Origin: an uncultured Piscirickettsiaceae bacterium
GTDB taxonomy: Bacteria > Pseudomonadota > Gammaproteobacteria > GCF-002020875
Length of the DNA stretch: 64,000 bases
NCBI GenBank assembly: GCA_964344135.1
Contig: CAYFMF010000002.1
Location: 20,015 to 84,014 of the forward strand
Reading direction: 5' to 3'
Shown: positions 2,982-42,077 of the stretch, piece by piece
Numbering within the stretch: position 1 is the stretch's first letter
How the letters are laid out: every line of letters begins with the position of its first letter
The notes under the pieces: model-generated
What the model was told of the DNA's origin: nothing
What the model saw: the letters and a program-made list of their open reading frames with translations, nothing else
Database searches by the model: none
Position numbers and translations under genes: made by a program

Positions 2982-2984
2982 CTA

Positions 2985-3998: not shown

Positions 3999-4411
3999 CT
4001 CCAGAAAATATGGCTGCTTCCCAGCAGTGCGGTGGCAATACTGATGTCCACTGTGGCCACAGTGATCAGGGTACTGTAGTTGCCATGAGAGAGGGTTGAA
4101 AGGGTGGCTCCAGCAATGATCATAAGGGCCAAAAACAGAAAGAATCCAGGTCTGTAAAACTGCCAGATTCTGGGCTCTGTCAAAGAGGCTATTCTATCCA
4201 GGTTTCTCCTGCAATTATTGATGAAGATATATCGTGCCTTCAATACTCCAAGGGAGATTCCGCCAGCGAGAGCCAGCCATGTCCACCCCTGTTTCGGAGA
4301 GAGGAGGGCCGCCTCTGTCAGAAGGGCTCCACCTTTCAGTGCCAGAACAACCCCTCCGGTGTACCATGTGAGGGCAGCCAGAATCTTGAGAAAATTATGG
4401 GTAACGGTCAT
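3995..4411 (-). CDS. Small integral membrane protein (138 aa, about 4 predicted TM helices), unknown function, embedded in the hyp operon between hypD and hypE
   Basis: Hydrophobic ORF. Its stop overlaps the hypE start by 4 nt and it begins 13 nt after the hypD stop, implying co-translation. Confidence 0.5.
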   Translation of the reverse strand: MTVTHNFLKILAALTWYTGGVVLALKGGALLTEAALLSPKQGWTWLALAGGISLGVLKARYIFINNCRRNLDRIASLTEPRIWQFYRPGFFLFLALMIIAGATLSTLSHGNYSTLITVATVDISIATALLGSSHIFWR

Positions 4412-4423
4412 TCTGAAATCCAG

Positions 4424-5548: not shown

Positions 5549-5774
5549 GAGGCTTCTCACCGTCGATCTCGGCAAAGAGGGCCAGGGTGCGTCTGGCCTC
5601 ATCCTCGCTTACCCTGCTCAGTGCATACCCCACATGGAGAAGGACATAGTCTCCAATACCGACATCCTCAACCAGGGCGAGAGAGATCTCCTTCCGAACC
5701 CCATCAAGAGAGACGATTGCCGAATTGCTACCGGGGTCAATCTCTACTATTTGGGCTGGCAGGGCAAGACACAT
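5535..5774 (-). CDS. hypC: Hydrogenase assembly chaperone HypC
   Basis: 79 aa, begins MCLA(L)P. The N-terminal Cys2 is the hallmark. Confidence 0.85.
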   Translation of the reverse strand: MCLALPAQIVEIDPGSNSAIVSLDGVRKEISLALVEDVGIGDYVLLHVGYALSRVSEDEARRTLALFAEIDGEKPHEVH

Positions 5775-5791
5775 GGTGGCTGATTGTCCGG

Positions 5792-6619
5792 TTAGCGGCG
5801 GGAGTGGTGCTGATGTTGTGCAATGCCGTCTGGCTGCAACCGAGGTGTTAGTGTCTCTTCACTGGAGAGACGATCGCGATAGTGGCTGATCTCATTGCGC
5901 AGCCACTCGATCCAGCGATCCATGCCATTGCCGTCCCTGGCAGAGAGGGAGATCATCTCGGCAGGGTTGGAGAGCTGGCGCAGATAGTGTTCGGCACGAG
6001 CGGGATCAAACGCATCAAGATAGGGAAGCAGATCGGTTTTGGTCAGGAGCATCAAATGGGCCGCACGAAAGATCACCGGATATTTTGCAGGCTTGTCGTC
6101 ACCCTCGGTAACGGAGAGCAGGGTGATATTCCGGTGCTGCCCGAGGTCAAAGCTGGCCGGACAGACCAGATTTCCAACATTCTCAATAAAGAGAATGTCG
6201 AGATCATCAAGGGAGAGTTGGTGGAGTGCATCATGGACCATATGGGCATCCAGATGACAGGCACTGCCTGTTGAGATCTGGCAGGCGGGAACCCCCTTGC
6301 TGCGGATGCGGTCAGCATCATTCTCGGTCGCCAGATCTCCTTCAACCACACCGATGCGCAACTCCTCCCCAAGGAGATCAATGGTTGCCTCAAGCAGAGC
6401 GGTCTTTCCGGCTCCGGGTGAGGACATCAGGTTAATGGCAAGAACCTGATGGCGGTCAAAATGGCCCCGATTGTGGGCGGCCTGGTGATCATTCTCGTGA
6501 AGCAGCCCCTGCAGTATCTCCACCGCCTCACTCCCACTGCTGGTATGGGAGAGCTTGCCGCTCTCCATCACCAGATGTTCGTTGCCCGGTGTGATGTTGC
6601 ATCCACAGGTGTCACACAT
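5792..6619 (-). CDS. hypB: Hydrogenase nickel-incorporation GTPase HypB
   Basis: Start at MCDTCGCN (metal-binding N-terminus). P-loop GAGKT. The ATG overlaps the hypA stop (ATGTGTGA). Confidence 0.9.
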   Translation of the reverse strand: MCDTCGCNITPGNEHLVMESGKLSHTSSGSEAVEILQGLLHENDHQAAHNRGHFDRHQVLAINLMSSPGAGKTALLEATIDLLGEELRIGVVEGDLATENDADRIRSKGVPACQISTGSACHLDAHMVHDALHQLSLDDLDILFIENVGNLVCPASFDLGQHRNITLLSVTEGDDKPAKYPVIFRAAHLMLLTKTDLLPYLDAFDPARAEHYLRQLSNPAEMISLSARDGNGMDRWIEWLRNEISHYRDRLSSEETLTPRLQPDGIAQHQHHSRR

Positions 6620-6986
6620 TACTCTTCTCCATCGTTTGCTCACTCACCCTTTCGAGCTCGATACTCCTCAACAGCATCTCATCACCACTAATCAGCCGGG
6701 TTCTCCACTCGCCACAGTGGCTGCAGACCATCCGGTTGGCGGTTGCCACCCCCTTTTGGTCACATACTTTACACTCGATGGTGATTGGCATCTCCTCAAC
6801 CTCAAGCCGTGCACCGGAGGCGAAGGTGCCGGTTCGTGCAATGGTCCATGCATTGGCAAGCAGTGGAATCTCTACCCCAGAGAGAGGGCCAACCTGAATG
6901 TGTACGACCGAGACCAGCATCCCCTTCTCTCTGGCGATTGGCTCAACTTGGGAGAGGATGGATTGGCAGACAGTGAGCTCATGCAT
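6612..6986 (-). CDS. hypA: Hydrogenase nickel-insertion protein HypA
   Basis: 124 aa, MHELTVCQSIL N-terminus and C-terminal CxxC...CxxC zinc site. Confidence 0.85.
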   Translation of the reverse strand: MHELTVCQSILSQVEPIAREKGMLVSVVHIQVGPLSGVEIPLLANAWTIARTGTFASGARLEVEEMPITIECKVCDQKGVATANRMVCSHCGEWRTRLISGDEMLLRSIELERVSEQTMEKSNV

Positions 6987-7393
6987 GGTTTACCTCATTG
7001 TAGTTTTTCCGTCCTGTTGCGACAGCCTCCTAGTATTGCACTTTATCAGGGCAATAGAAAATGTTCAGATACTATCCATTCCCTGGTTGAGAAGATGACC
7101 CAAATGGGGGTAAGCTGAACGGCAAGAATGGAATGATGAGCAATATCTACAAAACCGTATTGGCCATCTGGTTGCTGGCCATCTCTCTTCAGCTCGAGGC
7201 ACATACCGGGGCAGCACATACCGGCACACTGCTGGATGGAGCAGTTCATCTCTTTACCAGCCTCGATCATCTGTTGCCACTGCTGCTTGGGGTCTGGGCT
7301 GTTTTCAGAATACTCTTTCTGCTGGGTTCATCCCCTGGTATCGAAAAAGATCGTCTGGATCGGTGATGATCTGAATGGGGGATAGAGAGCGGA

Positions 7394-8512
7394 ATGGATA
7401 GCGGAGGTCTCCCCCAGTTTCTTCCACACAACCAGCTTGAGGGTCTGCTGCACGCCCTGCAGAGCAGTGGCTACAGCACTATCGCTCCAAAGGTAGAGGA
7501 TGGGGCCATTCTCTACCGAGCCGTGGACTCCATTCATGATCTGCCACGAGGTCTCTCTGATCAGCAGTCAGCGGGCAGCTACCGTCTGAGGGATCACGAC
7601 AGCCACCTCTTTTTTGGTTGGGCCAATGGCCCCACCGCACTCAAGCCACTTCTCTTCCCTCCCCATGAGAATCTCTGGAGCGCAACAAGGACGGCCGAGG
7701 GGAGGATCGAGTTCAGCCCCTCTCTGCCCGCGGTTGCCCCACTGGCTGTACTCGGGGTGAGGGGGTGTGATTTGGCGGCAGTGGAGCGGATGGATCGCCA
7801 TTTTCTCCGTCCGGATGGAGAGGATCCATGGTATCGGGAGCGGCGTGAAAACCTTCTGCTGATTGCCGTTGACTGTACACATCCATCGGACAACTGCTTC
7901 TGTGCATCTACCGGCAGTGGGCCAGAGGCTGGTGGCGGGTATGATCTGCGACTGCATGAGCTCGGCGAGGGGTTCCTCATCAATGCCGGCACTCTGCAGG
8001 GTGAAGAGATCATGGAGAAGCTCACTCTCTCGCCGCCTCCACCGAAGCTGGTTGAGCGCTCACGAGAGGCGCTTGCGCAGGCGGGAGCCGTGCAGCGGCA
8101 GGGGATTGCAGCGGCTGATTTCCGCCCCCTCTTCACCGGACAGGAGGAGAGCCCGCAATGGGAGAGGGTTGCAGAGCGCTGTCTGGGGTGTGGTAACTGC
8201 ACAGCAGTCTGCCCCACCTGTTTCTGTCACCGTGAGGAGGAGGTTCCATCACTGGAGCTGGAGCACAGTGTCCACCAGCGGGCCTGGGACTCCTGCTTCA
8301 CTGCAGAGCACAGCATGATTCATGGACGGCCGGTGCGTGCGGGGATCCGTGAGCGTTACCGTCAATGGCTGACCCACAAGCTGGCAGGGTGGCATGATCA
8401 GTTTGGGGAGAGCGGCTGTGTTGGGTGTGGACGCTGCATCACCTGGTGCCCAGTTGGAATCAACCTGGTTGAGGAGTCCTCAACATTTGCCAGCTCGGTG
8501 GAGGGGGGTTGA
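7394..8512 (+). CDS. Cytoplasmic [NiFe]-hydrogenase FeS (beta) subunit, sulfhydrogenase HydB / anaerobic sulfite reductase AsrA-like, with two CxxCxxCxxxCP ferredoxin motifs
   Basis: 372 aa. Motifs CLGCGNCTAVCP and CVGCGRCITWCP. First gene of a four-gene beta-gamma-delta-alpha unit typical of group 3b hydrogenases. Confidence 0.7.
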   Translation: MDSGGLPQFLPHNQLEGLLHALQSSGYSTIAPKVEDGAILYRAVDSIHDLPRGLSDQQSAGSYRLRDHDSHLFFGWANGPTALKPLLFPPHENLWSATRTAEGRIEFSPSLPAVAPLAVLGVRGCDLAAVERMDRHFLRPDGEDPWYRERRENLLLIAVDCTHPSDNCFCASTGSGPEAGGGYDLRLHELGEGFLINAGTLQGEEIMEKLTLSPPPPKLVERSREALAQAGAVQRQGIAAADFRPLFTGQEESPQWERVAERCLGCGNCTAVCPTCFCHREEEVPSLELEHSVHQRAWDSCFTAEHSMIHGRPVRAGIRERYRQWLTHKLAGWHDQFGESGCVGCGRCITWCPVGINLVEESSTFASSVEGG

Positions 8513-9348
8513 TGGAGGCTTCAGACCGAATTCCAATGGAGGCCGAGATTGTTGAGCGGCGGCAGGAGAGCAGTTCGGTCTTTACCCTGCGTCTGCGTCT
8601 GCTGGATGAGCGTCATCGGCGCCAATACCGGTTTGAGCCCGGGCAGTTCAACATGGTCTATCTGCATGGTGTCGGAGAGGTGGCGATCTCCATCGTCTCC
8701 GATGACAGAAACAGTCACCTGCTGGACCACACCATTCGTGGAGTGGGACGGGTCACAAAGGGGCTGGAACAGCTTCAGCAGGGGGATGTGATCGGGCTGC
8801 GTGGCCCCTTTGGGCGCGGCTGGCCGATGGAGCAGGCGAGAGGTCGTGACATTGTGGTTGTAACCGGTGGGGTAGGGTGTGCCCCGGTGGTCTCCGCACT
8901 GTCGCATATCAAGCGTCGCCGAAAGCGGTATGGCCGTGTGGCCATTGTGGAGGGGGTGCGCCACTGCAGTGACCTGATCTATTCGGACCGCTTTGAGCGC
9001 TGGCAGAGAATGGAGGATACCCAGGTACTTCTCTGTACCAGCGAGCCCTCTGCCCCCTGGCCCTGGCATACCGATCGGGTAACGGAGCATCTCGATGAGA
9101 TGGAGATCGACCCCTCAAGGGCCACTGCACTGCTCTGTGGTCCGGAGGGGATGATGACCTCGGCGGCAGTTGCACTTGAGCGATTGGGGGTGGACTCTCC
9201 ATCCATCTGGCTCAGTATGGAGCGCAACATGCAGTGCGGGGCAGGCTATTGTGGCCACTGTCAGATCGGCAGCCGCTTTGTCTGCAGGGATGGCCCGGTC
9301 TTTAACTGGACGGAGATCCGTGACCTGCTTGCGGTCAGGGGGGCATGA
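8512..9348 (+). CDS. Hydrogenase gamma subunit: FAD/NAD(P)-binding oxidoreductase (PyrK/HydG-like) with a C-terminal 2Fe-2S Cys cluster
   Basis: About 278 aa. C-terminal CGAGYCGHCQ. TGATG overlap with the upstream gene and ATGA overlap with the downstream gene. Confidence 0.7.
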   Translation: MEASDRIPMEAEIVERRQESSSVFTLRLRLLDERHRRQYRFEPGQFNMVYLHGVGEVAISIVSDDRNSHLLDHTIRGVGRVTKGLEQLQQGDVIGLRGPFGRGWPMEQARGRDIVVVTGGVGCAPVVSALSHIKRRRKRYGRVAIVEGVRHCSDLIYSDRFERWQRMEDTQVLLCTSEPSAPWPWHTDRVTEHLDEMEIDPSRATALLCGPEGMMTSAAVALERLGVDSPSIWLSMERNMQCGAGYCGHCQIGSRFVCRDGPVFNWTEIRDLLAVRGA

Positions 9349-10109
9349 TGAGACCACGCATCGCCGTCCACAAGTTCAGCTCCTGTGATGGATGCCAGCT
9401 CGCCTTCCTCAACCTGGGTGAGGCGCTGATTCAGCTTGCGGAGCTGGTGGAGATTGTCCACTTTGCAGAGGCGGGGATGGTCGATCCCGATGCCGAGGTG
9501 GCTGTCGCCTTTGTGGAGGGGAGCATCTCCACGCCAGATGACCTTGAGCGAATTCGGCAGATTCGAGAGCACTCGGAAAGGGTGATCACCATTGGTGCCT
9601 GTGCCACCTCAGGGGGGATCCAGGCGCTACGAAACATGGGCGGGGAGGGGTGGAGCGAGAGCCTCTACGCCTCTCCCGAATTCATTCAGACCCTCGCCTA
9701 CTCCACCCCGATCTCGGACCATGTCAGGGTCGATCTTGAGCTGTGGGGCTGCCCCATCCGTTCGCAACAGCTGCTTGCCGTGATCGTTGATCTGCTCCGC
9801 GGAGTGGCACCATCAACAGCGGATGAGGCGCTCTGCCAGAGCTGCAAGCGTAGCGGGGTGGTCTGCACCCTGGTCACTGCCGGAGCGCCATGCATGGGGG
9901 CGGTGACCCGAAGTGGGTGCGGTGCGGTCTGCCCCCAATTTGGACGCGACTGTTATGGCTGTACGGGGCCGGTTTCCGAGCCCAATACAGCCTCTCTGGG
10001 GCGCAGGCTGGAGGGGCTGGGGCTGGTGCCGGAGGAGGTGGAGCAGCGCTTCCGGATGATCCACTCTGGTGCGCCCCAGTTCAGGGAACAGGAGGAGACG
10101 GATGGCTGA
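9345..10109 (+). CDS. [NiFe]-hydrogenase small (delta) subunit, cytoplasmic type (no Tat signal)
   Basis: 254 aa. Cys ligand pattern for the proximal FeS cluster (SCDGCQ ... GACATSGG ... CP). Overlaps the large-subunit start. Confidence 0.8.
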   Translation: MMRPRIAVHKFSSCDGCQLAFLNLGEALIQLAELVEIVHFAEAGMVDPDAEVAVAFVEGSISTPDDLERIRQIREHSERVITIGACATSGGIQALRNMGGEGWSESLYASPEFIQTLAYSTPISDHVRVDLELWGCPIRSQQLLAVIVDLLRGVAPSTADEALCQSCKRSGVVCTLVTAGAPCMGAVTRSGCGAVCPQFGRDCYGCTGPVSEPNTASLGRRLEGLGLVPEEVEQRFRMIHSGAPQFREQEETDG

Positions 10110-11403
10110 TTCCGAGCGCACGATTCGTATCGAGGTGCCGGTGTTGGCCCGGATCGAGGGCGAGGGGGCGCTGGATCTGGTGCTCCGTGACCAGCAGATT
10201 GATTCACTCTCCCTCAGAATCTATGAGCCCCCCCGCTTCTTTGAGAAGTTCCTGGAGGGGCGTTCGGTTGCGGATGTGCCGGAGATGGTGGCGAGGATCT
10301 GTGGTATCTGCCCGGTGGCCTACCAGATGAGCGCAGTGGAGGCGCTGGAGGGGCTGTTCGGGGTTGAGGTTACCCCATGGGTCCGGGATATGCGCCGACT
10401 CTTCTACTGCGGGGAGTGGGTCCAGAGCCACAGCCTCCATATTCACCTGCTTGCCGCCCCCGATTTTCTCGGATATGAGAGTGCCATCGCGATGGCCAGG
10501 GAGTATCCGGACGAGGTGAGCAGGGGGTTGCGGCTCCAGGGGCTGGGCAACCGCCTCATCGCCCTGTTGGGAGGTCGGTCGGTCCATCCGGTTGGGGCTC
10601 GTATCGGGGGCTTCCACCATGCCCCCTCCCGGGAGGAGGTGGATCGTCTGCTTGCTGAGGTCGGAGCGGGGCTGGAGGATGCCGAGGCGCTGCTACGCTG
10701 GGTGGTGACGCTGGATCTGCCCGAGGATGAGCAGGCGTTCACCAGTGTAGCCCTGAGTGAGCCAGGTCGTTATCCGATGATTGGAGAGCAGATCATCTCG
10801 GACAGCGGGCTGGAGATTTCGGTTGCCGACTTTGAGTCCCGTTTCAGAGAATTTCAGGTTCCACACTCCACCGCATTTCATGCCCACCTGGATGGAAGTC
10901 CCTATCTGGTGGGGCCTCTGGCTCGCATTAACCTCCATTTTGAGCAGCTACCAGCCACAGTCAGGGCGCTATGCAGTGAGCTGGGTATTCAGTTCCCCAG
11001 CCGGAACATGTTCCATAGCGTGATCGCCCGCGCCGTTGAGCTCTATGCCGCACTTCATGAGGCGCGACAGCTGCTTGCCGACTACCGGATGCCGGACGCC
11101 CCATGGAGTGAATACAGCCCCCGTGCAGGAGTTGCATTTGGCGCAAGCTGTGCGCCACGCGGGATCCTCTGGCACCGCTATAAGGTGGATGAGGGTGGAA
11201 AGGTAGTGTCGGCCAGGATTGTACCCCCAACCAGCCAGAATCAGGCACGGATAGAGGAGGACCTCCGTGAATCGTTGGTCTCCTATGGGCTGGAGCGGGA
11301 TGAGGAGGAGATCAAGCTGCATGGTGAGAAGGTGATCCGTAACTATGACCCCTGTATCTCCTGTGCAACCCACTTTCTGAGACTTCGGGTTGAGCGAAAA
11401 TGA
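10102..11403 (+). CDS. [NiFe]-hydrogenase large (alpha) subunit
   Basis: Start at MADSERTIRIEV (ATGGCTGA overlap with the small subunit). N-terminal RICGIC motif and C-terminal DPCISCATH followed by a short cleavable tail (FLRLRVERK). Confidence 0.85.
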   Translation: MADSERTIRIEVPVLARIEGEGALDLVLRDQQIDSLSLRIYEPPRFFEKFLEGRSVADVPEMVARICGICPVAYQMSAVEALEGLFGVEVTPWVRDMRRLFYCGEWVQSHSLHIHLLAAPDFLGYESAIAMAREYPDEVSRGLRLQGLGNRLIALLGGRSVHPVGARIGGFHHAPSREEVDRLLAEVGAGLEDAEALLRWVVTLDLPEDEQAFTSVALSEPGRYPMIGEQIISDSGLEISVADFESRFREFQVPHSTAFHAHLDGSPYLVGPLARINLHFEQLPATVRALCSELGIQFPSRNMFHSVIARAVELYAALHEARQLLADYRMPDAPWSEYSPRAGVAFGASCAPRGILWHRYKVDEGGKVVSARIVPPTSQNQARIEEDLRESLVSYGLERDEEEIKLHGEKVIRNYDPCISCATHFLRLRVERK

Positions 11404-11882
11404 GCCGACCGGAGCGGGCGGTGATTGGTGTTGGCAGTCCGCTGGGGGAAGACCGATTTGGATGGCAGGTTGTCCACCATCTGCGGCAGCAGCCGGGTCT
11501 GGGGGATGAAAACAACATCGATCTGCTGACTGAGGATCGCCCCGGGGTGCTGCTGCTGGAGCGGATGCAGGGGTACCGGCAGGTTATTCTTGTTGATGGG
11601 CTGTTGTCAGAAGAGGGGAAGACCGGCTCAATCCACCATTTGGGGAGGGATCAACTGATTGCCCTATCCAGGGGGGCGCTCTCCACCCATGCTGCAGGTG
11701 TTGCCGAGGCGGTTGCCCTGGGAGATGTGCTGGACACGTTGCCGGAGCAGGTCATGCTTGTTGGCGCAGAACTCTCGGAGTGTGGTGATGAGCCTCCATC
11801 TGCTGACCTTGTTGAGCAGACTGCACTGGAGATCCAGAAGCTGCTTTCTGACGGAACGGAGCCCTATTCAATCGCTCTGTAA
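11400..11882 (+). CDS. Hydrogenase maturation endopeptidase (HycI/HoxW family)
   Basis: 160 aa. ATGA overlap with the large-subunit stop. Family-typical length and position. Confidence 0.7.
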   Translation: MSRPERAVIGVGSPLGEDRFGWQVVHHLRQQPGLGDENNIDLLTEDRPGVLLLERMQGYRQVILVDGLLSEEGKTGSIHHLGRDQLIALSRGALSTHAAGVAEAVALGDVLDTLPEQVMLVGAELSECGDEPPSADLVEQTALEIQKLLSDGTEPYSIAL

Positions 11883-11942
11883 CACCCCGTCAGGGAGGTG
11901 GTGCCCCAACATATCGATATCCTCAGGCAGGCCACTCTTCTT

Positions 11943-18255: not shown

Positions 18256-18528
18256 CCTTCCTCTCTGAGTGCCCCATAATCAGTTGAGGCCTCCCCTCCA
18301 TTGCATTGAGTGTAGACACTTTATGTGGCACCGCCCATAAAAACAATTAAGTAATACTTAATGCTCTCTATTGTCTTGCTCGATGCCACCCCCCTGGTAT
18401 GCCGGTCGTGCGATCTCATCAGTTCGGTCAGGAGGTGAGGCGTTACGGTTAGGATGGTCTGGTGTTGAATGGGGGTTTGGACTAGACTCATTACTCACGA
18501 TTTGGGAAAAAGAGTTGGGGGATTGATT

Positions 18529-20079
18529 GTGAAGAGCATTGGTTACTATCTACTGATGGTGCTCTTTTCCGCCTGGGCAGTTGCAGACCCTGTTGCTGAT
18601 CTGGAGGGAAAGAGTGGATATGAGAGGAGGGCATCCATTACCCGCCTTGCTGATACAGCCTGGGGTGGACAGCAGTTCTCCATTGAACGAGGGGTCGAGA
18701 TTCTTCGTGGGCTGACAGGGACGGATCGTTACTATGCGGCCAAATCCCTGCTGGGTTCCAATAGAGAGAGAAGAATCCTGTTGCCAGGGCCACTCTCCGT
18801 GGGAGAGGTCGATACTCTGCTGGAGGGTACGGGCAGGCAGCGACAGGACCTGATTCTACATCTGGCAGATTCCGGGGCCCCTGCCGGAAACCTTGGTGTC
18901 GAGGAGGTGCGCACACTGATTGGGGAGCTGCAGGGGGGAGCGTATGATCGTACCCTCCGATCCCTGCTGGGATCCAACCGGGCCGGGAAAAACTACGCAC
19001 TTGTCCCGTTTGGATCCGCTCAGGTCGACAGGCTTCTTGCTGCCGGGTCAGACCGTGCGGAGATGATCCGTTACATGGCGGATCGGGCGCTTCTGGAGGG
19101 AGGGTTCACTGTCGATGAGGCAGAGCGCATGATGCAGAGCCAGAGCGGGATGGATCGTCATGACTCCGTCAAGGCACTGCTCGGTTCCAATAGCGAGGAG
19201 AGGGACTACCTAACCCTTCCACTTGGATTTGCCGATGCAAAACAGCTGCTGAACGGAGTGGCCTTGCGATCTGAGCTTATCCACTACTTCTCCGACCATG
19301 GGGTGTTTGCCGGCAGATTGAGAGCCAGGGAGGTGGTTCAGCTACTGGATGGGGTTGAGAAGAGAGACCGCTATAGCGTGGTGAGGTCCCTGTTGGGGTT
19401 CAATGAGCAGGAGAGGAGCTATCTCCAGACCCCACTGGCAATGGACGATGCGGGAGCCCTGCTGGAGGGGATGGCCTATCGTGACGAGATGATTGGGCTT
19501 CTGGCCGATCAGGGTGGTCTGGTTGAGGGGTTGAGTGTGGCAGATGCCACTCTCCTGTTGGGTGAGCTTGCACGTGCGGATCGACATGATGCACTCCTCC
19601 CCCTGTTGGGCAACAATGAGCAGGGGGTGAGCTATCTCGAATTGCCTGTTACTGCCGAGGGGGCGGTGCAGTTGATGGAGCGGGCTGCCTACAGAGATGA
19701 GTTGATCGACTTTATGGTAGACCGTGGCCAGCTGGCCGGCCCACTGAGTGCTGATCAGGCGCTTGAGTTGATGACGGGTCTTGTTGGAGAGGTTCGCTAC
19801 AAAACGCTACTCTCTCTGCTGGGTAGTAATGAGCAGGAGGTAAATTATCTTCCCGTGCCAATGGAGCTGCCCGCACTATTGCCACTGCTGGAGCGGATCG
19901 CAAACCGCAAGGCGGCCATCGGATGGGTGGCTGATCACGGTATGATCAAGGGGGAGCTTGGTGAGGAGGAGACAGAGCAGTTGCTGGGGCGCCTCTATGG
20001 TGAGGAGCGTGAGCAAGCGACAGCAATCCTGAAGGGAAAGAATCGGCAGAACAGAAGCTATCTTTCAGAAGCCAGATAA
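18529..20079 (+). CDS. Secreted tandem-repeat protein: Sec signal peptide (MKSIGYYLLMVLFSAWAVA|DP from a GTG start), then six and a half exact 71-aa repeats (consensus LLGsNeqe.sYL.lPl......LLeg.ayRdEmI.y.aD.G.laG.ls.dea..Ll..l.g.dRyd.l.s)
   Basis: Repeat boundaries located by the recurring LLG(S/F/N)N motif. Every unit is 71 or 72 aa. The track ORF begins 60 nt upstream at 18469, but GTG at 18529 has a GGGGGA RBS and yields a canonical signal peptide. Confidence 0.6.
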   Translation: MKSIGYYLLMVLFSAWAVADPVADLEGKSGYERRASITRLADTAWGGQQFSIERGVEILRGLTGTDRYYAAKSLLGSNRERRILLPGPLSVGEVDTLLEGTGRQRQDLILHLADSGAPAGNLGVEEVRTLIGELQGGAYDRTLRSLLGSNRAGKNYALVPFGSAQVDRLLAAGSDRAEMIRYMADRALLEGGFTVDEAERMMQSQSGMDRHDSVKALLGSNSEERDYLTLPLGFADAKQLLNGVALRSELIHYFSDHGVFAGRLRAREVVQLLDGVEKRDRYSVVRSLLGFNEQERSYLQTPLAMDDAGALLEGMAYRDEMIGLLADQGGLVEGLSVADATLLLGELARADRHDALLPLLGNNEQGVSYLELPVTAEGAVQLMERAAYRDELIDFMVDRGQLAGPLSADQALELMTGLVGEVRYKTLLSLLGSNEQEVNYLPVPMELPALLPLLERIANRKAAIGWVADHGMIKGELGEEETEQLLGRLYGEEREQATAILKGKNRQNRSYLSEAR

Positions 20080-34515: not shown

Positions 34516-35379
34516 CTAGAGACTGATAGAGGATTTCAGCTTTTTCATGGCACCCTGTTCGAGCTGCCGGATGCGCTCGGCAGAGACACCATATTCGTCC
34601 GCAAGCTCCTGCAGGGTGCTCTTCTCCTCACTCAGCCAGCGCCGGATGATGATATTGCGGGCCCGCTCATCCAGTGAGGTGAGTGCGCTCTGCATCTGCT
34701 GCGTGGACTGCTCTCTCCAGTCGCTCTGCTCCAGATGCTCTTCCGGGGTCGGTTCCGGTGCCTCCAGATAGGCGGCTGGGGCGAAGTGTTCCTCCTCCTC
34801 GTCACACCCCATCGGGAGATCGAAGGAGGCGTCATGGTGGCTCAGGCGGCGCTCCATCTCCAGTACGGTCTCGGGTTTGACGCCCAGGTCTCCGGCAACA
34901 GTCTCCACCTCCTCACGGGAGAACCAGCCCAGCCTCTTCTTTGCGCTACGCAGATTGAAGAAGAGCTTGCGCTGCGCCTTGGTGGTGGCCACCTTGACGA
35001 TGCTCCAGTTGCGCAGTACATATTCATGGATCTCTGAGCGGATCCAGTGGACGGCAAAGGAGACCAGGCGGACCTTGCGCTCCGGATCAAAACGGCGTAC
35101 CGCCTTCATCAGCCCCAGATTACCCTCCTGGACCAGATCGGCCAGGGGGAGTCCATATCCAAGATAGCCGCGTGCGATATGGGCAACAAAACGGAGGTTG
35201 GAGAGTACCAGTTTACGCGCAGCCTCAAGATCGCCCTGCTCATGAAAGCGGATGGCCAGTGCCTGCTCCTCCTCCTCGCTGAGGACGGGAATGTCTCTCA
35301 GGCTCTGCAGGTAGGCATCAATACTGCCGACTGGTGCAGCAGGCAGTTGGTTATAGGCGGTCTGAAGGGCGTAACTCAT
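34516..35379 (-). CDS. rpoH: RNA polymerase sigma-32 factor
   Basis: RpoH box QRKLFFNLR. Confidence 0.9.
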
Positions 35380-35539
35380 TCATTCTTCTCTCTGTTTCTG
35401 ATGCCACGATTATAGGGGGTGAAATTAGCACTCGCAAGATTAGAGTGCTAATTTTCCATCAGGTTCCCTGCAATGTGTACTCCTGCAGTGCTGTTGATAA
35501 CGTCGTATAGTCTATATGAATCAGAAAGATAACAGGGCT

Positions 35540-36523
35540 CTATTGTGACAGAAGTGCCTCAACAAACTCCTCTGCATGGAACGGGCGCAGGTCATCAATG
35601 CCCTCTCCAACGCCGATAAAACGGATCGGCAGGTGGAGTTGCCCGGCGACCGCGAAGATGACCCCCCCCTTTGCGGTACCGTCCATCTTGGTCAGGGTGA
35701 TGCCGGTCAGCCCAACCGCCTGATGGAACTGCTGGGCCTGGTGGATGGCGTTCTGTCCGGTGCCGGCATCAAGAATGAGCATGATCTCATGGGGTATGGA
35801 GTCATCCAGCTTCTGCATCACCCGCTTCACCTTCTTCAGCTCCTCCATAAGATTGGACTGTGTATGGAGACGACCCGCGGTATCGGCAATCAGGATGTCG
35901 ACCCCTCGGGCACGTGCCGATTCCACCGCATCATAGATGACGGAGGCGCTGTCGGCCCCGGTCTGCTGGGCAATCACCGGGATCTCGTTTCTCTCCCCCC
36001 AGGTCTGGAGCTGCTCTACGGCCGCGGCCCGAAAGGTGTCTCCGGCAGCAAGCATTACCGATTTTCCCTGTTGCTGGAGCTGTTTGGCCAGCTTGCCGAT
36101 GGTGGTGGTCTTGCCGGCACCATTGATTCCAACCATCAGGATAACGTAGGGGGAATCAGCGCTGGGCTGCAGGGGGGATTCGGAGGGGGAGAGCAGCTCC
36201 ACCATGCTCGCCTTCAGGGCATGGAGTATTGCCTCCGGGCTGTCGCCCTTGTTTCTGGAGAGGCGTTCAGTGAGTAGAGAGAGAATCTGCTGGGTTGCCT
36301 CAATGCCGACATCGGCCATCAGCAGACGTGTCTCCAGCTCCTCCAGCAGCTCATCATCGACACTCTTCTTGCCGAGCAGAAGGTTGCCGAGCCCTTCGCT
36401 GAAGTTACTGCGTGTGCGCGTCAGCCGTTCCCTGAGCTGACGGAAGACCCCCTTTGAGGCGGGGTCAGTGGGAGTTGCTGAAGATTCTGCTCCCCCCTTG
36501 TTCCTTTTTCCAAATCCCAGCAT
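35540..36523 (-). CDS. ftsY: Signal recognition particle receptor FtsY
   Basis: SRP GTPase motifs. Start taken at MLGFGKR. Confidence 0.85.
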   Translation of the reverse strand: MLGFGKRNKGGAESSATPTDPASKGVFRQLRERLTRTRSNFSEGLGNLLLGKKSVDDELLEELETRLLMADVGIEATQQILSLLTERLSRNKGDSPEAILHALKASMVELLSPSESPLQPSADSPYVILMVGINGAGKTTTIGKLAKQLQQQGKSVMLAAGDTFRAAAVEQLQTWGERNEIPVIAQQTGADSASVIYDAVESARARGVDILIADTAGRLHTQSNLMEELKKVKRVMQKLDDSIPHEIMLILDAGTGQNAIHQAQQFHQAVGLTGITLTKMDGTAKGGVIFAVAGQLHLPIRFIGVGEGIDDLRPFHAEEFVEALLSQ

Positions 36524-36599
36524 CTTGTTCGATCCATTGAAAATTTTGACGGAAGGATAACGCAAAAACGGGACGAGCCACAGCCTCTCCCTGTATGGA

Positions 36600-37889
36600 T
36601 CAGGGTTGCGCTACCGGAATCTCCGCAACGAGATCGGCAAACTCGATCTTGTATTTGTGCTGCAGGGAGCGGACAAACGGGGGGAGGTTCTCGTCAATGA
36701 TTGCCTGGCGTACCCGATCGTGGATCTCCTCGTACTCATGCTGGATGGCGGGCTTGATTCCCTGCAGCAGGATGAGATGGAACCCCTTCTCGCTCTCTGC
36801 AATCTCACTGATCTCGTCCACCTTCATCCCCTCCAGCGCCCTCTCAATGGCAGGCATTGCGCCCCCTTTTTGAAGCCACCCCATCTGCCCCGCTCTTTTT
36901 TGCCCGTAGGGGTCGATGCTGTGGAGGCGCGCCATGCGGAAGAAGCTCTCCCCGGCGAGGATCCGTTTTCTCACCGCCTCTGCCTTCTCCCGGCTGTTGA
37001 GCACAATCTGCGAAACCATCCGCTGCTCTGGAACAAGGCCAAGTTCACGGTGGCTGTTGAAGTAGGCGCGTGCAGCCGCACGATCGGGTGCCCACTCACT
37101 CTCCTTCTTCAGGATCAGCATGGCGGGAAGGTGCTCCCTGGAAAATGCCTCCATAACGGCATCTGCATTGCTGATAGAGTCTCTGGCGACAAGATTGACC
37201 AGGTCAATCTCCAGCCGCTGGTAGAGCCGCACCTCAATGGCAGAGGGGTGGAATGCCCTCTCATCGCTGAGTTCAATCCCAAGGTCCGAGAAGCGCAGCA
37301 GGTAGTTGTCTGCCTCGGCAAGGATGGTCTCGGGGGTGATGGCAGGGGTGATGCGCTCCTCATGGAGAGTAAGGTGAACCCGGTCACGGATCTTGTTCAG
37401 TGCAAGGGTGCGAACCAGCCTGTACTGCTGGGCACGATACTGGGCGATGGCCGCATCAATGGCCCCGGAGTCCCCCTTGAGACGTTCCAGCAGCTCCTCC
37501 ATCACGCTGTCTGGAACCTTGATCGAGGCGCGGAGTCGATCCATATAGTGTTTGTAGGTCACTCCCCTGATAAAGGATTCACGTTCCCTGATGAAGGCGG
37601 GATCCCGGTCCAGCTCCCGGTCAAGTGCCTCAAGATAGAGCAGCTGCAGATTGACCAGGCGCATCAGGATGGAGCCACGCATCGCCGCCTGCGCCTTCTC
37701 GTCCAGGGTGGGGTACTGGTCGGCAAGTGGTGAGCTGACGATGATACGTTCGATATCGTGGTCGGTGATGGCATAGCCCTCAACAGAGACCAGCGGAGTC
37801 GCCTCTCCCTTTGAGAGGGCTGCAGCAGGCAATCCCGCAGAGAGGGTGGCAATCAGGATCAACCGGATCCAGTTCAACATGGTCTTCAC
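36600..37889 (-). CDS. Periplasmic parvulin-type peptidyl-prolyl isomerase (SurA/PpiD-like, signal peptide)
   Basis: 429 aa. Rotamase domain (GQMGWLQKG...GFHLILL). Confidence 0.7.
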   Translation of the reverse strand: MKTMLNWIRLILIATLSAGLPAAALSKGEATPLVSVEGYAITDHDIERIIVSSPLADQYPTLDEKAQAAMRGSILMRLVNLQLLYLEALDRELDRDPAFIRERESFIRGVTYKHYMDRLRASIKVPDSVMEELLERLKGDSGAIDAAIAQYRAQQYRLVRTLALNKIRDRVHLTLHEERITPAITPETILAEADNYLLRFSDLGIELSDERAFHPSAIEVRLYQRLEIDLVNLVARDSISNADAVMEAFSREHLPAMLILKKESEWAPDRAAARAYFNSHRELGLVPEQRMVSQIVLNSREKAEAVRKRILAGESFFRMARLHSIDPYGQKRAGQMGWLQKGGAMPAIERALEGMKVDEISEIAESEKGFHLILLQGIKPAIQHEYEEIHDRVRQAIIDENLPPFVRSLQHKYKIEFADLVAEIPVAQP

Positions 37890-37917
37890 TCCTGAATCCT
37901 CAGCTCAGGGGAGCTGA

Positions 37918-40347
37918 TCATTCATCAGGAATTGCACCGCCAAGGTCTGGTGCAGAGGCGTGCATCCAGGAGACCGCCGCATCATAGTCCTCCATGAAGG
38001 AGCTGCCTTCCCACTCCTCCTTGTTGGCAATCAGCGGTACACCGGCCTCATTGGTGTAGTGACATGCGGCGCAGATCATCGGTCCGTGAGAACCGTCCGG
38101 GTTGAACTGTGCTGCCTGCTTGTAGCTGGTCTCATCCACATCGGCCGTTACCGGATAGAGGCCATGGATGGACTCATGACAGACCTGGCAGGCGAGCCCT
38201 GCATGCCCCTTGGTGTAACGCATCAGGCTGTACTTGCCCGGCTGGTTGATCGGGAATGCAACACCGCCCTGACCCTCAACATAGGGGGCGGCATGGCAGT
38301 CTGCGCAGTGCGGTTCACCGGCGGAGAGCCAGTAGGACTTGCCGTGAGAGGCCGCATCGTAGGGTGCAGCCACTGCACCGTCGGCGCCCTCTGGCAGGAT
38401 CAGCGTTGCAACATCCACTGCTGGGTTGGCTGAGAGAGGAACAACATTGACGTCACCATCCTCATCGATGTTGACCATCGGGCCGCCATCCTGGGTTGCA
38501 ATCACCGCAATATCCGGATGTGTCACCTCAGGATCCCAGACCGCTAGGATATGCGATTTCCCCGGGGTATCGTGGCCCTCTGCATCCAGCACCACCTTCG
38601 GATCCATCATCGCCTCCAGGGTTGTCATATCGACACCGATGCCGGCTGCGATCTCTTCCAGCGACTTGTTGCGCAGGGTGGCCCCCTCCTGACGAAATGC
38701 ATGGGTAAGGTTGTCTGCCTGGTAGAGCTTCCTGGCCAGTGGGGAGTGACAGTTGGTGCACCAGAGCCCCTTGCCGCCCTCACCGTTGCCGATGTTGGAG
38801 ACATTATCCTGGATCCAGCTGCCGATTGCGTTGAGGTGCTCCGGGGTGCCGGCCCCATCCTTGTCCTTGTAGGGGTTGGAGTGGACGTCACGACCGGCGA
38901 AACAGCCCTCGCCATCCCGGTTGTCTGCATTGGCAAAGAAGTTTCCACCATCTGCCGTCATTGGGTAGCGATCCATGTTGCCATCCTGGCGGTGTGAGGG
39001 GTGGCATCCCTGGCAGCTACCACTGCGACCCTGACTATCCGGTTGTGGACGTTTCTCCTGGTGTACTCGATGAATCGCCTCGGTCAGTGGCATGATCGGC
39101 CTCTCCTCACCTCCGGGAATGACATCACTCACCCTCTTCGAGTTCAATACGCCGATCACATTGTCCGCATGACACTTCTGGCAGAGGATGGGATCCCCGC
39201 CCAGACGGTTGTCCTTGGAGCGCGATCCCGGGTTGTAGTTCTTCAGGAAGTCGGTGCCGTGCTTGTCGTCATGCTGCTCCAGAATGGAGAGCGAAGTGGC
39301 CTTCAGGTTGGCAATCCAGTCACTGGCACCAAGCCCCTTCCAGAATGCCTTCTCACCCTTCCAGAGATTGTACTTGTCGCCATTCGCATTCTTGTTGGCG
39401 TGGCAGTTTGCACAGTTGGGTACATCAATCGGGCTGGTGCCGATGAAGTGGACGGGCCTGCCATTTACACGATCAATCACCGCCTCTCCCGTCTCGGCAT
39501 CCACCAGTGCTGCCCAGGACTCCTGGTAGGGTCGGATATCGCTCTCCAGCATGGTGAGCGGGTCGCGCTTCATGATGCTGTCCTGCCATGGGGTGAGCGG
39601 CAGACCCAGCGCGTCCCAGATGCCCGGGTTGGTCAGCACGATGGGTACATTGTCCAGTACCGGGGACTTGGTATAGACGATGGTCCCCTTCTCGCCCGAG
39701 TAGTGGAGGTGTCCACCGTTCAGCGGGCTTGGAACAGCGGCACCGGCGGGGCCATTATCCTTTGGGATGGGGATCTCGATACCGACACGCGCCTTCTTGC
39801 TGTCTGCGCTGGTCTCCTCAGGGTTGGACCCCTTCAGATCCTGGTAGACATAGAGGTGGGTAAAGTAGGCATTGGCCACATTGTCACCAGGGCCATAGGT
39901 ACCATCTCCATCCACATCATACTTCACATTCCAGTAGGCAAGCTTGTCCCCCTCTGCATAGGTGTTGTCGGTATGGCCATACTCGATCCTCATTCGTCTC
40001 TTGCCATCGACCAGGATGTCATGCTCCTCCTCGTCCGACTCCAGTACCTCGGGCCACTTCTTGGCACCCACTGCGGTCTTGATCACCTGTGCCTGAACCG
40101 AGTTGTAGGGTGGGAGTACACAGCAGTAGGTAAAGTCAAAGCCGGTACAGTGCATCCCGAGCTCATAGTTCAGGCTGATGTTGTACTCGTTCTTGGGCCT
40201 GGTTGGATCTGCCACAGCGGCCGCTGCATCCGCTCCATAGACACGCTCCTTGATCGGGTAGTACACGGCCTGCTGCTGGGCACCACAACCGGCTACAGCG
40301 GCAATCACCAATGCGCTGCCCGCCAGCGTGGCCGGGTGGAATCTCAT
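37918..40347 (-). CDS. Heptaheme c-type cytochrome lipoprotein (about 810 aa)
   Basis: Seven CxxCH motifs (CANCH, CQKCH, CQGCH, CTNCH, CADCH, CQVCH, CAACH). Start reassigned to MRFHPATLAGSALVIAAVAGC (GGAGGAG RBS, lipobox LVIAAVAG|C). Confidence 0.75.
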   Translation of the reverse strand: MRFHPATLAGSALVIAAVAGCGAQQQAVYYPIKERVYGADAAAAVADPTRPKNEYNISLNYELGMHCTGFDFTYCCVLPPYNSVQAQVIKTAVGAKKWPEVLESDEEEHDILVDGKRRMRIEYGHTDNTYAEGDKLAYWNVKYDVDGDGTYGPGDNVANAYFTHLYVYQDLKGSNPEETSADSKKARVGIEIPIPKDNGPAGAAVPSPLNGGHLHYSGEKGTIVYTKSPVLDNVPIVLTNPGIWDALGLPLTPWQDSIMKRDPLTMLESDIRPYQESWAALVDAETGEAVIDRVNGRPVHFIGTSPIDVPNCANCHANKNANGDKYNLWKGEKAFWKGLGASDWIANLKATSLSILEQHDDKHGTDFLKNYNPGSRSKDNRLGGDPILCQKCHADNVIGVLNSKRVSDVIPGGEERPIMPLTEAIHRVHQEKRPQPDSQGRSGSCQGCHPSHRQDGNMDRYPMTADGGNFFANADNRDGEGCFAGRDVHSNPYKDKDGAGTPEHLNAIGSWIQDNVSNIGNGEGGKGLWCTNCHSPLARKLYQADNLTHAFRQEGATLRNKSLEEIAAGIGVDMTTLEAMMDPKVVLDAEGHDTPGKSHILAVWDPEVTHPDIAVIATQDGGPMVNIDEDGDVNVVPLSANPAVDVATLILPEGADGAVAAPYDAASHGKSYWLSAGEPHCADCHAAPYVEGQGGVAFPINQPGKYSLMRYTKGHAGLACQVCHESIHGLYPVTADVDETSYKQAAQFNPDGSHGPMICAACHYTNEAGVPLIANKEEWEGSSFMEDYDAAVSWMHASAPDLGGAIPDE

Positions 40348-40703
40348 GCTCTGTTCTCCTCCCCTAGTGGGATTTATGATTATTATTGTGATGGGGGTTC
40401 CCCAGTAAACATCTCTCCCCATCAACGATTTATTAAGAAGAGTTAACTGGTAACACTTTTTTGTATAACTCTATGCAATACAATAATTTTTTTCAATTTT
40501 CTAAGGATTCAATGATGTTTTTGACTGTGAGGGTGTTGGCGCCCCGGACCCTTCTGTTCCCAATTGAGTTGCCGGCAGCTGGAACTTCCACTTTTTCCAC
40601 GGGTCTTCTCGGGTACAATTTGCGAACCATTATTCAGGAACCTCCGAACAAGACTGGGTCAATCTCTTGTTCAGGGGCTCCTTCAGAAAGGAAAGGGAGT
40701 GAG

Positions 40704-42077
40704 ATGAATCCAGGGCGTTGGAGTGTAAGAGGGATTGTGGCTGCAGCGGCATTTGCAGCCACCCTCTCTGCAACCGCATCGACGGTTACAGAGGTGGTAC
40801 TGGAGAACGGGATGAAGGTGATCGTCAAGGAGGATCATCGCGCACCGGTGGTGGTCTCCCAGGTCTGGTACAAGGTGGGATCCAGTTATGAGACGGATGG
40901 AATTACCGGGATCTCCCATATGCTGGAGCATATGATGTTCAAGGGGACCGAAAAGCATGGTCCCAACGAGTTCTCAACCATTATCTCGGAGAATGGGGGG
41001 CGTGAGAACGCCTTTACCGGGCGTGACTACACCGCCTATTTTCAGCGTCTGGAGAAGAGCCGTCTGCCGATCAGCATGGAGCTGGAGTCGGACCGAATGC
41101 GTAACCTGACCCTGCCGGAGGAGGAGTTTCTCAAGGAGCGGGAGGTGGTGCAGGAGGAGCGCAGGCTACGTACCGAGGATGCGCCCACCTCGCTTACCTT
41201 TGAACAGTTTATGGCCACTGCCTTCCAGACCAGCCCCTACCATCATCCGATTGTCGGCTGGATGAATGATATCGAGAACTATGACATTGAGGATCTGCGG
41301 GCATGGTATGCAATGTGGTATGCCCCCAACAACGCTACTCTGGTGGTTGCGGGTGATGTCAATGCGGAGGAGGTGATCGAGCTGGCCAGGAGATACTACG
41401 GCCCCCTTGCCCCCTCAGAGCTGAACCCGCCCAAGCCACGCATGGAGGTGGAGCAGCTGGGCCCCCGTGAGGTGACGGTTCGGGTCCCGGCCGAGATCCC
41501 CTATCTGGTGATGGGGTTTCCGGCCCCTACCGTGGTGACTGCAGAGGCGTCGTGGGAGCCCTATGCACTTGAGGTGATGGCCTATATTCTGGATGGAGGC
41601 GATAGTGCACGCCTCAACAAGAAGCTGATTCGACAGCTGCAGATTGCCACCAGTGCCGGCGTTGGTTATGACCCCTATGATCGCCTGCAGACCCTCTTTA
41701 TTGTTGAAGGGGTTCCGGCAGAGGGGCACTCTGTTGCAGAGGTGAAGGAGGCGCTGCTGGCCGAATTGAGCGAGATCAGAAAGAATCCGGTCACAAAAGA
41801 GGAGCTGGACAGGGTGAAGGCACAGGTGGTGGCCGCCAAGGTCTTTGAGCAGGACTCCGTCTTTTATCAGGCGATGCAGATCGGAACCCTGGAGACCATT
41901 GGGCTGGATTGGCGTGAGGCGGACCGATATGCAGAGCATGTCCGCAAGGTGACGGCGGAGCAGGTTTTGGCGGTGGCGAACAGCTATCTCGATCCGGACC
42001 GGATGACGACAGCGATACTGGATCCGCTTCCAATCGAGAGTGGTGAGAGCAGCGAGGAGGTGGCCCATGTTCACTGA
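40704..42077 (+). CDS. M16 (pitrilysin) family zinc peptidase, active subunit (HxxEH)
   Basis: HMLEHMMF inverted zinc motif. Signal peptide begins MNPGRW. Confidence 0.8.
   Translation: MNPGRWSVRGIVAAAAFAATLSATASTVTEVVLENGMKVIVKEDHRAPVVVSQVWYKVGSSYETDGITGISHMLEHMMFKGTEKHGPNEFSTIISENGGRENAFTGRDYTAYFQRLEKSRLPISMELESDRMRNLTLPEEEFLKEREVVQEERRLRTEDAPTSLTFEQFMATAFQTSPYHHPIVGWMNDIENYDIEDLRAWYAMWYAPNNATLVVAGDVNAEEVIELARRYYGPLAPSELNPPKPRMEVEQLGPREVTVRVPAEIPYLVMGFPAPTVVTAEASWEPYALEVMAYILDGGDSARLNKKLIRQLQIATSAGVGYDPYDRLQTLFIVEGVPAEGHSVAEVKEALLAELSEIRKNPVTKEELDRVKAQVVAAKVFEQDSVFYQAMQIGTLETIGLDWREADRYAEHVRKVTAEQVLAVANSYLDPDRMTTAILDPLPIESGESSEEVAHVH

Follow-up and report, generated by a model that had tools for sequence, protein, structure and literature searches.

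Background and locus

Among the multihaem c-type cytochromes, NrfA, HAO, MccA and OTR are enzymes that mark one step each in the cycling of nitrogen or sulfur. MccA (SirA) is part of a sulfite reductase system that occurs in Wolinella, Shewanella and Campylobacter, and a peptidyl-prolyl isomerase (PPIase), MccB/SirB, is reportedly encoded beside its gene. For HAO with cytochromes c554 and cM552, as well as in the rus operon of Acidithiobacillus, the periplasmic substrate oxidase shares its gene cluster with a soluble cytochrome c, a quinone reductase of the NapC/NirT type or a terminal oxidase. DsrJ, a component of DsrMKJOP, carries a Cys-ligated haem. Here, we analysed a 64,000-nt stretch of DNA from an uncultured Piscirickettsiaceae bacterium (contig CAYFMF010000002.1, positions 20,015 to 84,014; referred to as the window), in which the gene of a seven-haem c-type cytochrome is followed on the same strand by the gene of a parvulin-type PPIase. 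With slightly more confidence than doubt, we take the cytochrome to represent a new family of periplasmic seven-haem redox enzymes that has a private folding helper and is wired to the respiratory chain.

The MccA/Sir system provides the strongest analogy, which concerns the organisation only and not homology, since all tests for membership based on homology or motifs were negative. Both proteins are large periplasmic multihaem c-type cytochromes with extra cysteines (functional in MccA), and both have a PPIase in the operon (here in 58/67 loci, see below). MccA is coupled to the quinone pool by a pair of an Fe-S and an NrfD-type protein (PMC8076601); such a pair is also found beside a relative of the cytochrome in locus L082. 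In contrast to MccA, the cytochrome has seven instead of eight haems and neither a CX15CH nor a CX17CH motif, shows no detectable sequence or fold similarity, and has a haem-free N-terminal domain of about 260 residues for which Foldseek matched no counterpart. Its partners are mostly NapC/NirT or c4 proteins, and its carriers are mainly sulfur oxidisers, not sulfite respirers.

The likeness to the other systems is more restricted. In L082, the cytochrome follows DsrO and a DsrP-like protein and thus takes DsrJ's place, and the family has an invariant Cys in its haem domain as well. However, DsrJ is a small trihaem protein without detected similarity to the cytochrome, and the arrangement is known from this one locus only, with no adjoining dsrMK. 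The neighbours of the cytochrome follow the same lithotrophic module logic as those of HAO or the rus operon, but the cytochrome is not homologous to HAO and lacks an eighth haem.

A seven-haem cytochrome outside of known families

The cytochrome gene starts with an ATG that has GGAGGAG 8 nt upstream. The encoded N-terminus (MRFHPATLAGSALVIAAVAG, followed by C21) is a Sec signal with a lipobox, i.e., the Cys directly after the signal peptide (AVAG, then C21) that marks bacterial lipoproteins is present. A motif scan identified exactly 7 CxxCH motifs and neither CxxCK nor long-spacer CX3-25CH motifs. Among 20,000 shuffles of the protein, the mean CxxCH count was 0.016 (maximum 2), such that the observed number is not due to chance. 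Haems 1-4 are located at residues 312-534 and a c7-like trihaem end at 681-763, with a second haem-free stretch of about 150 residues between haems 4 and 5. The first haem-free part covers residues 22-311 and contains a beta-rich N-terminal domain of roughly 260 residues. According to the secondary structure of the AlphaFold model (mean predicted local distance difference test, pLDDT, of 77; predicted template modelling score, pTM, of 0.82), the haem domain holds a beta-rich insert at residues of about 612-662.

The open reading frame (ORF), signal and motif positions thus confirm what the original prediction had read from this gene, namely a seven-haem lipoprotein with large haem-free parts. 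The lipoprotein assignment holds for the window but is no family trait: a lipobox is found in about two thirds of the best 120 homologues, about one third have ordinary signal peptides, and the cytochrome of the closest relative shows a Gly in place of the lipobox Cys. Since the lipid anchor is not conserved in relatives, this argues for a periplasmic protein with optional membrane attachment.

Next, we searched for known families. Within Pfam, only generic haem-motif families match (residues 389-768), leaving the first 300 residues uncovered. The only match above its cut-off is Cytochrome_C7 (PF14522; residues 716-768, 28.5 bits vs. 24.8), which is informative at the domain level only. NCBIfam provides no meaningful match. 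Searching the PDB with phmmer and with a profile hmmsearch (profile built from 38 family members; library including MccA, OTR, HAO, NrfA, ONR and MtrC) yields no relative of the cytochrome, and MccA is not retrieved at E up to 10. Similarly, Foldseek reports nothing below E = 0.1 for the AlphaFold model compared with the PDB and with viral structures.

This is also reflected in family-specific features. For NrfA, neither the CxxCK motif nor a Pfam match to Cytochrom_C552 (E up to 0.1) is found; for the octahaem families HAO, ONR and OTR, the motif count is seven and Pfam, NCBIfam, PDB and Foldseek searches give no match; and concerning MccA/SirA, all seven haem motifs are of the CxxCH type. 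An eighth, non-canonical haem site that uses the extra cysteines was ruled out, as no His follows these. The earlier expectation that the protein matches neither NrfA, HAO, OTR nor MccA is therefore upheld by Pfam, NCBIfam, PDB sequence and profile searches as well as Foldseek. The structure prediction proposed along with it (AlphaFold plus Foldseek) led to no characterised family, and no orthology to a characterised multihaem enzyme family, which would have contradicted it, was found.

Database copies of the cytochrome are all named "hypothetical protein" or "cytochrome c domain-containing". We found no description of the family in the literature; it is missing from the Gallionellaceae pangenome table and from the Ferrigenium preprint, and the paper on ImoA/CymA treats the mto cluster, not the seven-haem cytochrome. 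The seven-haem family is unannotated, with no curated model over the first 300 residues and no similar solved structure.

Distribution and conservation of the family

A word-indexed search identified 902 homologues, the best 120 of which are full length with 66-88% identity. Scanning one genome per species, at least 367 species-level genomes carry the gene (55-88% identity). The majority of carriers are sulfur oxidisers. Among Gammaproteobacteria, these comprise Chromatiaceae, Sedimenticolaceae (Sedimenticola among them), Ca. Thiodiazotropha, Thiotrichaceae, Ectothiorhodospiraceae and tubeworm symbionts such as Ca. Endoriftia persephone. Further carriers are methanotrophs of marine and fresh waters (Methylococcaceae, Methylothermaceae, Methylomarinum, Methylomonas, Crenotrichaceae), iron oxidisers (Sideroxydans, Ferrigenium, Gallionellaceae), Rhodocyclaceae, Burkholderiaceae, Hyphomicrobiaceae, Nitrospinota and one metagenome-assembled genome (MAG) of Bacteroidetes. 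The family is as large as those of the NrfA, HAO, MccA and OTR enzymes, and it is better conserved.

An exhaustive search against 50%-identity representatives places the whole canonical group under one representative and adds about 20 more divergent full-length forms, some of which have 1,000-1,900 residues and 8-16 haems. Some divergent members carry fused class-I cytochrome c domains and thereby combine in a single polypeptide what is otherwise a partnership of neighbouring genes; other long ones are fused to Big_9, cadherin-like or PEP-CTERM surface domains. Based on the best 120 homologues, 308/809 positions are conserved in at least 98% of the sequences. The most conserved 30-residue stretches are 61-90, i.e., a loop of the haem-free domain, and 691-720 (0.93 each). 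Exactly seven CxxCH motifs together with GMHC, YCC and GC[FY]xGRD are kept in 78/79 full-length proteins from the loci described below.

Some of the copies are peculiar. A distant relative of 900 residues (P0240) is an apparent tandem duplication, with GMH at residues 38 and 393 and five CxxCH after each of these motifs, and it has no relative in the PDB. Locus L092 (1496-11044) encodes two paralogues, i.e., a form of 1,246 residues and a Cys-less one of 738 residues (P0128), with a 523-residue PPIase and a PEP-CTERM protein between them and a gene of the FGE-sulfatase family directly after P0128. A search for the Cys-less subfamily found only seven proteins, none with an informative name. Three MAGs, identified by contig accession prefixes, have two cytochrome copies on different contigs (L048/L061, L057/L072, L066/L087); in two of them, one copy (L066, L072) is located in a context of oxidase and Cu-pump genes.

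The cytochrome and the PPIase form a conserved cassette

The PPIase has its own signal peptide (MLNWIRLILIATLSAGLPAAALS) and a Rotamase domain (PF00639) at residues 299-376 that scores 53.8 bits (cut-off 21.7). Both agree with the earlier description of a SurA/PpiD-like PPIase with its own signal peptide after the cytochrome. A PDB search relates its parvulin domain to those of PrsA, SurA and PEB4. Like these proteins, it is exported and has its parvulin domain between chaperone-like N- and C-terminal regions. In contrast to them, it is tied to one client gene and stays far below every NCBIfam equivalog cut-off (PpiD 55.8 vs. 493, SurA 27.8 vs. 394), such that it is not SurA or PpiD proper. 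A mechanical call extends the ORF to a GTG at 37889 (429 residues).

To evaluate the gene pair in relatives, we used the first 88 fetched loci (83 non-redundant), for which ORFs were called and clustered. The PPIase gene lies directly downstream of the cytochrome gene on the same strand in 58/67 loci with enough flank, and anywhere in the locus in 64/67. This adjacency spans Gammaproteobacteria, Betaproteobacteria, Alphaproteobacteria and Nitrospinota with differing flanks. The mean identity to the window's proteins is 67% for the cytochrome (68 loci from several phyla) and 34% for the PPIase, and the divergence of the two is correlated (r = 0.84). Such a correlated but faster divergence of the PPIase is what a client-specific helper should show if it is inherited along with an enzyme under strong constraint. 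The dedicated PPIase that had been proposed for the window is thus borne out by adjacency and co-divergence.

In many loci, a third gene belongs to the unit. A TlpA/ResA-like thiol:disulfide oxidoreductase with a signal peptide and a WC[AS]PC motif directly follows the PPIase in 31/56 loci and is present within 8 kb in 38/56. It is absent from the window, with no copy in the 64 kb, and from close relatives. The two-gene unit originally described therefore holds for the window, whereas the usual unit elsewhere has three genes. Such a three-gene cassette is a ready recipe for heterologous expression.

We are highly confident that cytochrome and PPIase form a conserved enzyme-plus-chaperone module. 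Incidental adjacency to a general periplasmic chaperone of the SurA/PpiD type, to which the generic parvulin features and a weak SurA_N_3 match in Pfam (14 bits, cut-off 27.2) could point, is very improbable given the recurrence of the pair across classes and phyla with always different flanks, the correlated divergence, and a gap of 37 nt without a terminator between the two genes in the window.

A candidate active site in the haem-free domain

Beside the 14 haem-binding cysteines and that of the lipobox, four cysteines of the cytochrome are invariant, namely Cys67, Cys75 and Cys76 in the loop of the N-terminal domain and Cys482 in the haem domain. All four are replaced together in the divergent lineages P0128 and P0140, which suggests that they act as a unit. 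In the AlphaFold model, loop residues 68-78 show a pLDDT below 50 despite the conservation of 0.93. Such a combination would be in line with a loop that becomes ordered only when it surrounds a cofactor, which the model lacks.

From these patterns, we infer that the thiols of the GMHC-x7-CC loop and Cys482 make up a catalytic or cofactor site that adjoins one of the haems. Candidates are a Cys-ligated haem, a substrate-binding set of thiols, and a Cu-thiolate site of the MccA kind, although the support for a haem-copper site such as the one in MccA is weak. The periplasmic thiol reductase of the operon suggests that the loop thiols must stay reduced. Related roles are described for other systems: TlpA keeps Cu-binding cysteines reduced before metallation (PMC7558416), and a small thioredoxin of C. 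jejuni presumably assists in the biogenesis of the haem-copper enzyme MccA (PMC7089426).

P-type ATPases are found near the cytochrome in 8 loci, 7 of which are CPC-type Cu(I) pumps with FixI/CcoI-like N-termini. A specific link to the cytochrome is weakened by the fact that 6/7 of these pumps accompany a haem-copper oxidase, an enzyme that requires a pump of this kind in any case. Only in L020 does a pump follow the cassette without an oxidase, and the ATPase of L049 is not of the Cu type.

Respiratory and sulfur neighbours in relatives

The upstream neighbours of the cytochrome differ by lineage and are all respiratory. A c4-like dihaem cytochrome adjoins the gene in 24/62 loci, and a NapC/NirT tetrahaem protein in 12/62, mainly in Betaproteobacteria and Sedimenticola. 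A complete oxidase operon is found in 10-11 loci, mostly of methanotrophs, with subunit II (full CuA site), subunit I (His-x3-Tyr, HH and HxH) and a dihaem cytochrome c; the gene of the latter overlaps that of the seven-haem cytochrome or lies immediately next to it. In the methanotroph MAG loci L042, L047, L053-L055, L059 and L062, oxidase, dihaem c, cytochrome and PPIase genes form one apparent operon.

The neighbouring haem-copper oxidase is predicted to be a B-family oxygen reductase, because it keeps the active-site tyrosine that all newly described nitric oxide reductase families lack (PMC11214002). A function as nitric oxide reductase, which would have hinted at N-oxide chemistry, was ruled out, since 11/11 copies retain His-x3-Tyr and the CuA motif. 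Taken together, the interchangeable modules that lead to the quinone pool or to cytochrome c are typical of periplasmic terminal oxidoreductases.

Sulfur-related neighbours are found in unrelated lineages. In L082 (609-2549), from a Nitrospinota MAG, a DsrO equivalog with a twin-arginine translocation (Tat) signal (298.7 bits, cut-off 200) and a DsrP-like NrfD protein are encoded directly upstream of the cytochrome. In L081 (275-7796), one strand encodes a TtrB/NrfD fusion, a PhsA-like molybdenum-bis(pyranopterin guanine dinucleotide) subunit, TauE/SafE, Usp, DsrE2 (186 bits vs. cut-off 210), the cytochrome and the PPIase. Here, the TtrB/NrfD fusion lies about 6 kb upstream of the cytochrome; an Fe-S/NrfD pair directly beside it is seen in L082 only, and the window has neither of the two arrangements. 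The PhsA-like subunit shows no obvious Tat motif at the called start. Both loci place sulfur genes in a phylum known for nitrite oxidation. DsrE2 adjoins the cytochrome in three Nitrospinota loci, DsrE and a rhodanese are encoded near the cassette of L092, and in Sedimenticola DsrE2, TusA and a rhodanese directly follow the TlpA-like gene of the cassette.

Function of the cytochrome and alternative explanations

In the explanation that we favour, the two genes are the core of a conserved portable operon, which would encode a seven-haem enzyme and its private folding helper. The parvulin and the thiol reductase would be needed to fold the Cys/haem site and to keep it reduced. The other haems would wire this site to the respiratory chain, depending on the organism via a c4-type dihaem cytochrome, NapC/NirT, a DsrO/DsrP-like module or a B-family oxidase. 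The substrate of the enzyme, converted in the periplasm, would be a small inorganic compound, with a reduced sulfur species as the most probable candidate. Its most probable way of working would be oxidative, with electrons passed to cytochrome c, an oxidase or the quinone pool.

Our confidence differs between the parts of this explanation. The cytochrome is fairly probably an enzyme rather than a wire. Oxidation is favoured by the oxidase operons and the lithotrophic carriers, although we consider the direction about evenly balanced. A sulfur compound as substrate is put forward tentatively because most carriers are sulfur oxidisers and sulfur-relay genes stand beside the cassette in unrelated lineages. 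It is not rated higher because such genes are neighbours in only about 7/83 loci and because methanotrophs and iron oxidisers have no obvious need for it.

Several further observations weigh against the explanation. Beside methanotrophs and iron oxidisers, also Nitrospinota carry the gene, such that sulfur is no obvious common denominator. No partner gene is found within the window's 64 kb. Ten non-motif histidines are well conserved, which suffices for seven bis-His haems, i.e., the sequence does not demand an open catalytic haem. Two structural disulfides are a fair alternative for the four cysteines, and the TlpA-like protein could serve ordinary haem attachment. Finally, NapC/NirT proteins are usually quinol dehydrogenases for reductases, ImoA acts as a quinol oxidase in vivo (PMC9600427), and both NapC/NirT and Fe-S/NrfD partners equally fit a reductase.

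At its most specific, our explanation describes a new sulfur-converting enzyme in which a haem works together with a four-Cys (possibly Cu) site that a novel haem-free domain contributes. Its reaction would be the oxidation of sulfide, polysulfide or bound sulfane sulfur, or an interconversion of sulfite, with the electrons delivered to c4, the B-family oxidase or the quinone pool. With all these details, the reading is doubtful.

A terminal reductase is unlikely as well. Here, quinol electrons arriving via NapC/NirT, a DsrOP/NrfCD-like module or c4 would reduce an N-oxide, sulfite, polysulfide or peroxide at oxic-anoxic interfaces, mirroring the pairs NrfA-NrfH, epsilon-Hao-HaoB or MccA-MccCD. 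The adjacent NapC/NirT genes, whose products typically oxidise quinol (PMC9600427), and the Tat-signal Fe-S and NrfD-family proteins of L082 are in line with this. The same holds for the combination of multihaem protein, PPIase and thioredoxin, which matches the logic of the MccA system (PMC7089426, PMC8076601), and for the habitats, as every carrier lives where oxygen is scarce. On the other hand, the cytochrome has no CxxCK or CX15CH motif and no homology to known multihaem reductases, and its carriers are overwhelmingly lithotrophs that oxidise reduced compounds. In the 10-11 oxidase loci, moreover, the gene is the last one of an operon begun by a B-family oxygen reductase and a dihaem c, which reads as donor to cytochrome c to oxidase.

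We consider it less probable still that the cytochrome lacks a catalytic site of its own and serves as a wire for electron transfer or, at the outer surface, in the exchange of electrons with the exterior. With the decahaem lipoproteins MtrC, OmcA and MtrF it shares the lipoprotein signal, here and in about two thirds of its relatives, and a weak match of the C-terminal haem cluster (MtrC/MtrF domain II/IV, PF22113; sub-threshold with 27.6 bits vs. 30). Such a role is also consistent with the surface domains fused to divergent long relatives and with the iron oxidisers among the carriers. However, the cytochrome has seven haems, its lipid anchor is dispensable, and its score for the OmcA/MtrC model of NCBIfam (TIGR03507) is 11.8 vs. 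a cut-off of 209. A porin or MtrAB-like partner is found in none of the 83 non-redundant loci, where the partners are inner-membrane or periplasmic proteins. Furthermore, its conservation is far above that of the co-inherited PPIase and peaks in the haem-free domain, which rather fits the enzyme that we favour.

If the cytochrome is catalytic, it would represent a respiratory reaction that has gone unrecognised in the dominant organisms of oxic-anoxic interfaces and chemosynthetic symbioses. If the sulfur assignment is true as well, lithotrophs that store sulfur, including the symbionts of tubeworms and clams, would have in it a periplasmic step missing so far, and methanotrophs, iron oxidisers and Nitrospinota would have acquired it as well.

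Genomic placement of the cassette

In E. coli, the gene order is rpoH-ftsX-ftsE-ftsY, with ftsY and rsmD as direct divergent neighbours. The window shows rpoH-ftsY-[PPIase-cytochrome], divergent from M16-M16-rsmD-coaD-fdx. That is, ftsY (35540-36523, - strand) and then rpoH follow downstream of the PPIase, and the M16 peptidase pair with rsmD, coaD and fdx lies upstream of the cytochrome. We found no terminator-like sites on the - strand between cytochrome, PPIase and ftsY. In the region 34516-36523, rpoH directly follows ftsY, and the genes ftsE and ftsX, which separate the two in E. coli, are absent.

Following the synteny comparison proposed with the original prediction, we searched the flanking proteins against all loci (tblastn). 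Only members of the window's clade, i.e., the window contigs, L009, L089 and L090, have the cassette between the M16 pair and ftsY, and all loci outside of this clade have other flanking genes. Its position there is fixed in at least three additional relatives at the species level (L009, L089, L090). L089 is Ca. Thiopontia autotrophica, the closest named relative of the window and a sulfur oxidiser of dysoxic marine waters (PMC8359478). Within the clade, the cytochromes are 79-88% identical, compared to 65-86% for the flanking housekeeping proteins, and a scan of G+C content and composition shows neither an anomaly nor a foreign island.

Given this fixation, the housekeeping-like divergence and the inconspicuous G+C content, the insertion is old and vertically kept: the cassette is portable over long time scales, but in the window's clade it has long been settled and passed on by vertical descent. 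The accessory insertion that had been proposed is thus correct with regard to the clade-specific site, but not in the sense of a recent or variable element. Universal presence at the site within the lineage, which had been named as an argument against an insertion, is nearly what is found. Coordinates of all features are provided in Table 1.

Table 1. Features of the cytochrome-PPIase locus in window coordinates.
Feature	Position	Strand	Basis or remark
Parvulin-type PPIase/chaperone gene	36600..37880	-	426 aa, ATG with AGGAG 8 nt upstream
Seven-haem c-type cytochrome gene	37918..40347	-	ORF and motifs; 809 aa plus stop, ATG at 40347
Sec signal peptide and lipobox (LVIAAVAG, then C21)	40285..40347	-	cytochrome translation
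Invariant loop YELGMHCTGFDFTYCCVLPPYN, residues 61-82, haem-free N-terminal domain	40102..40167	-	conservation; candidate active-site or cofactor loop
Cytochrome haem domain, 7 CxxCH	38059..39414	-	motif coordinates, secondary structure of AlphaFold model
CxxCH 1, residue 312	39400-39414	-	motif scan
CxxCH 2, residue 389	39169-39183	-	motif scan
CxxCH 3, residue 445	39001-39015	-	motif scan
Cys482 in GC[FY]xGRDxH, only non-motif Cys of the haem domain	38902..38904	-	invariant in best 120 homologues
CxxCH 4, residue 530	38746-38760	-	motif scan
CxxCH 5, residue 681	38293-38307	-	motif scan
CxxCH 6, residue 720	38176-38190	-	motif scan
CxxCH 7, residue 759	38059-38073	-	motif scan
Cytochrome/M16 divergent intergenic region	40348..40703	.	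two weak sigma-70-like sites and conserved block

The conserved block of the intergenic region is the 17-nt sequence ATTGTACCCGAGAAGAC (40603-40619, - strand), which is invariant in the window, L089, L090 and L009. The nearby GAAGTTC (40582-40588, - strand) is invariant in the same four, and the remaining spacer has diverged. The block overlaps a 45-codon ORF that is called in public contigs; it could be a regulator site or a small gene. An Rfam scan of 36300-41000 identified no family.

Other features of the window

Two further observations concern the remainder of the window. An ORF of 536 residues (18469-20079, + strand) has no Pfam match at E up to 1e-5. A [NiFe]-hydrogenase region extends over about 1281-11900, with a large-subunit-like ORF (10069-11403), HypD (4424-5602) and a HypX-like protein (1281-2981) that combines formyltransferase and enoyl-CoA hydratase domains. 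Based on this gene content, the organism can probably use H2.

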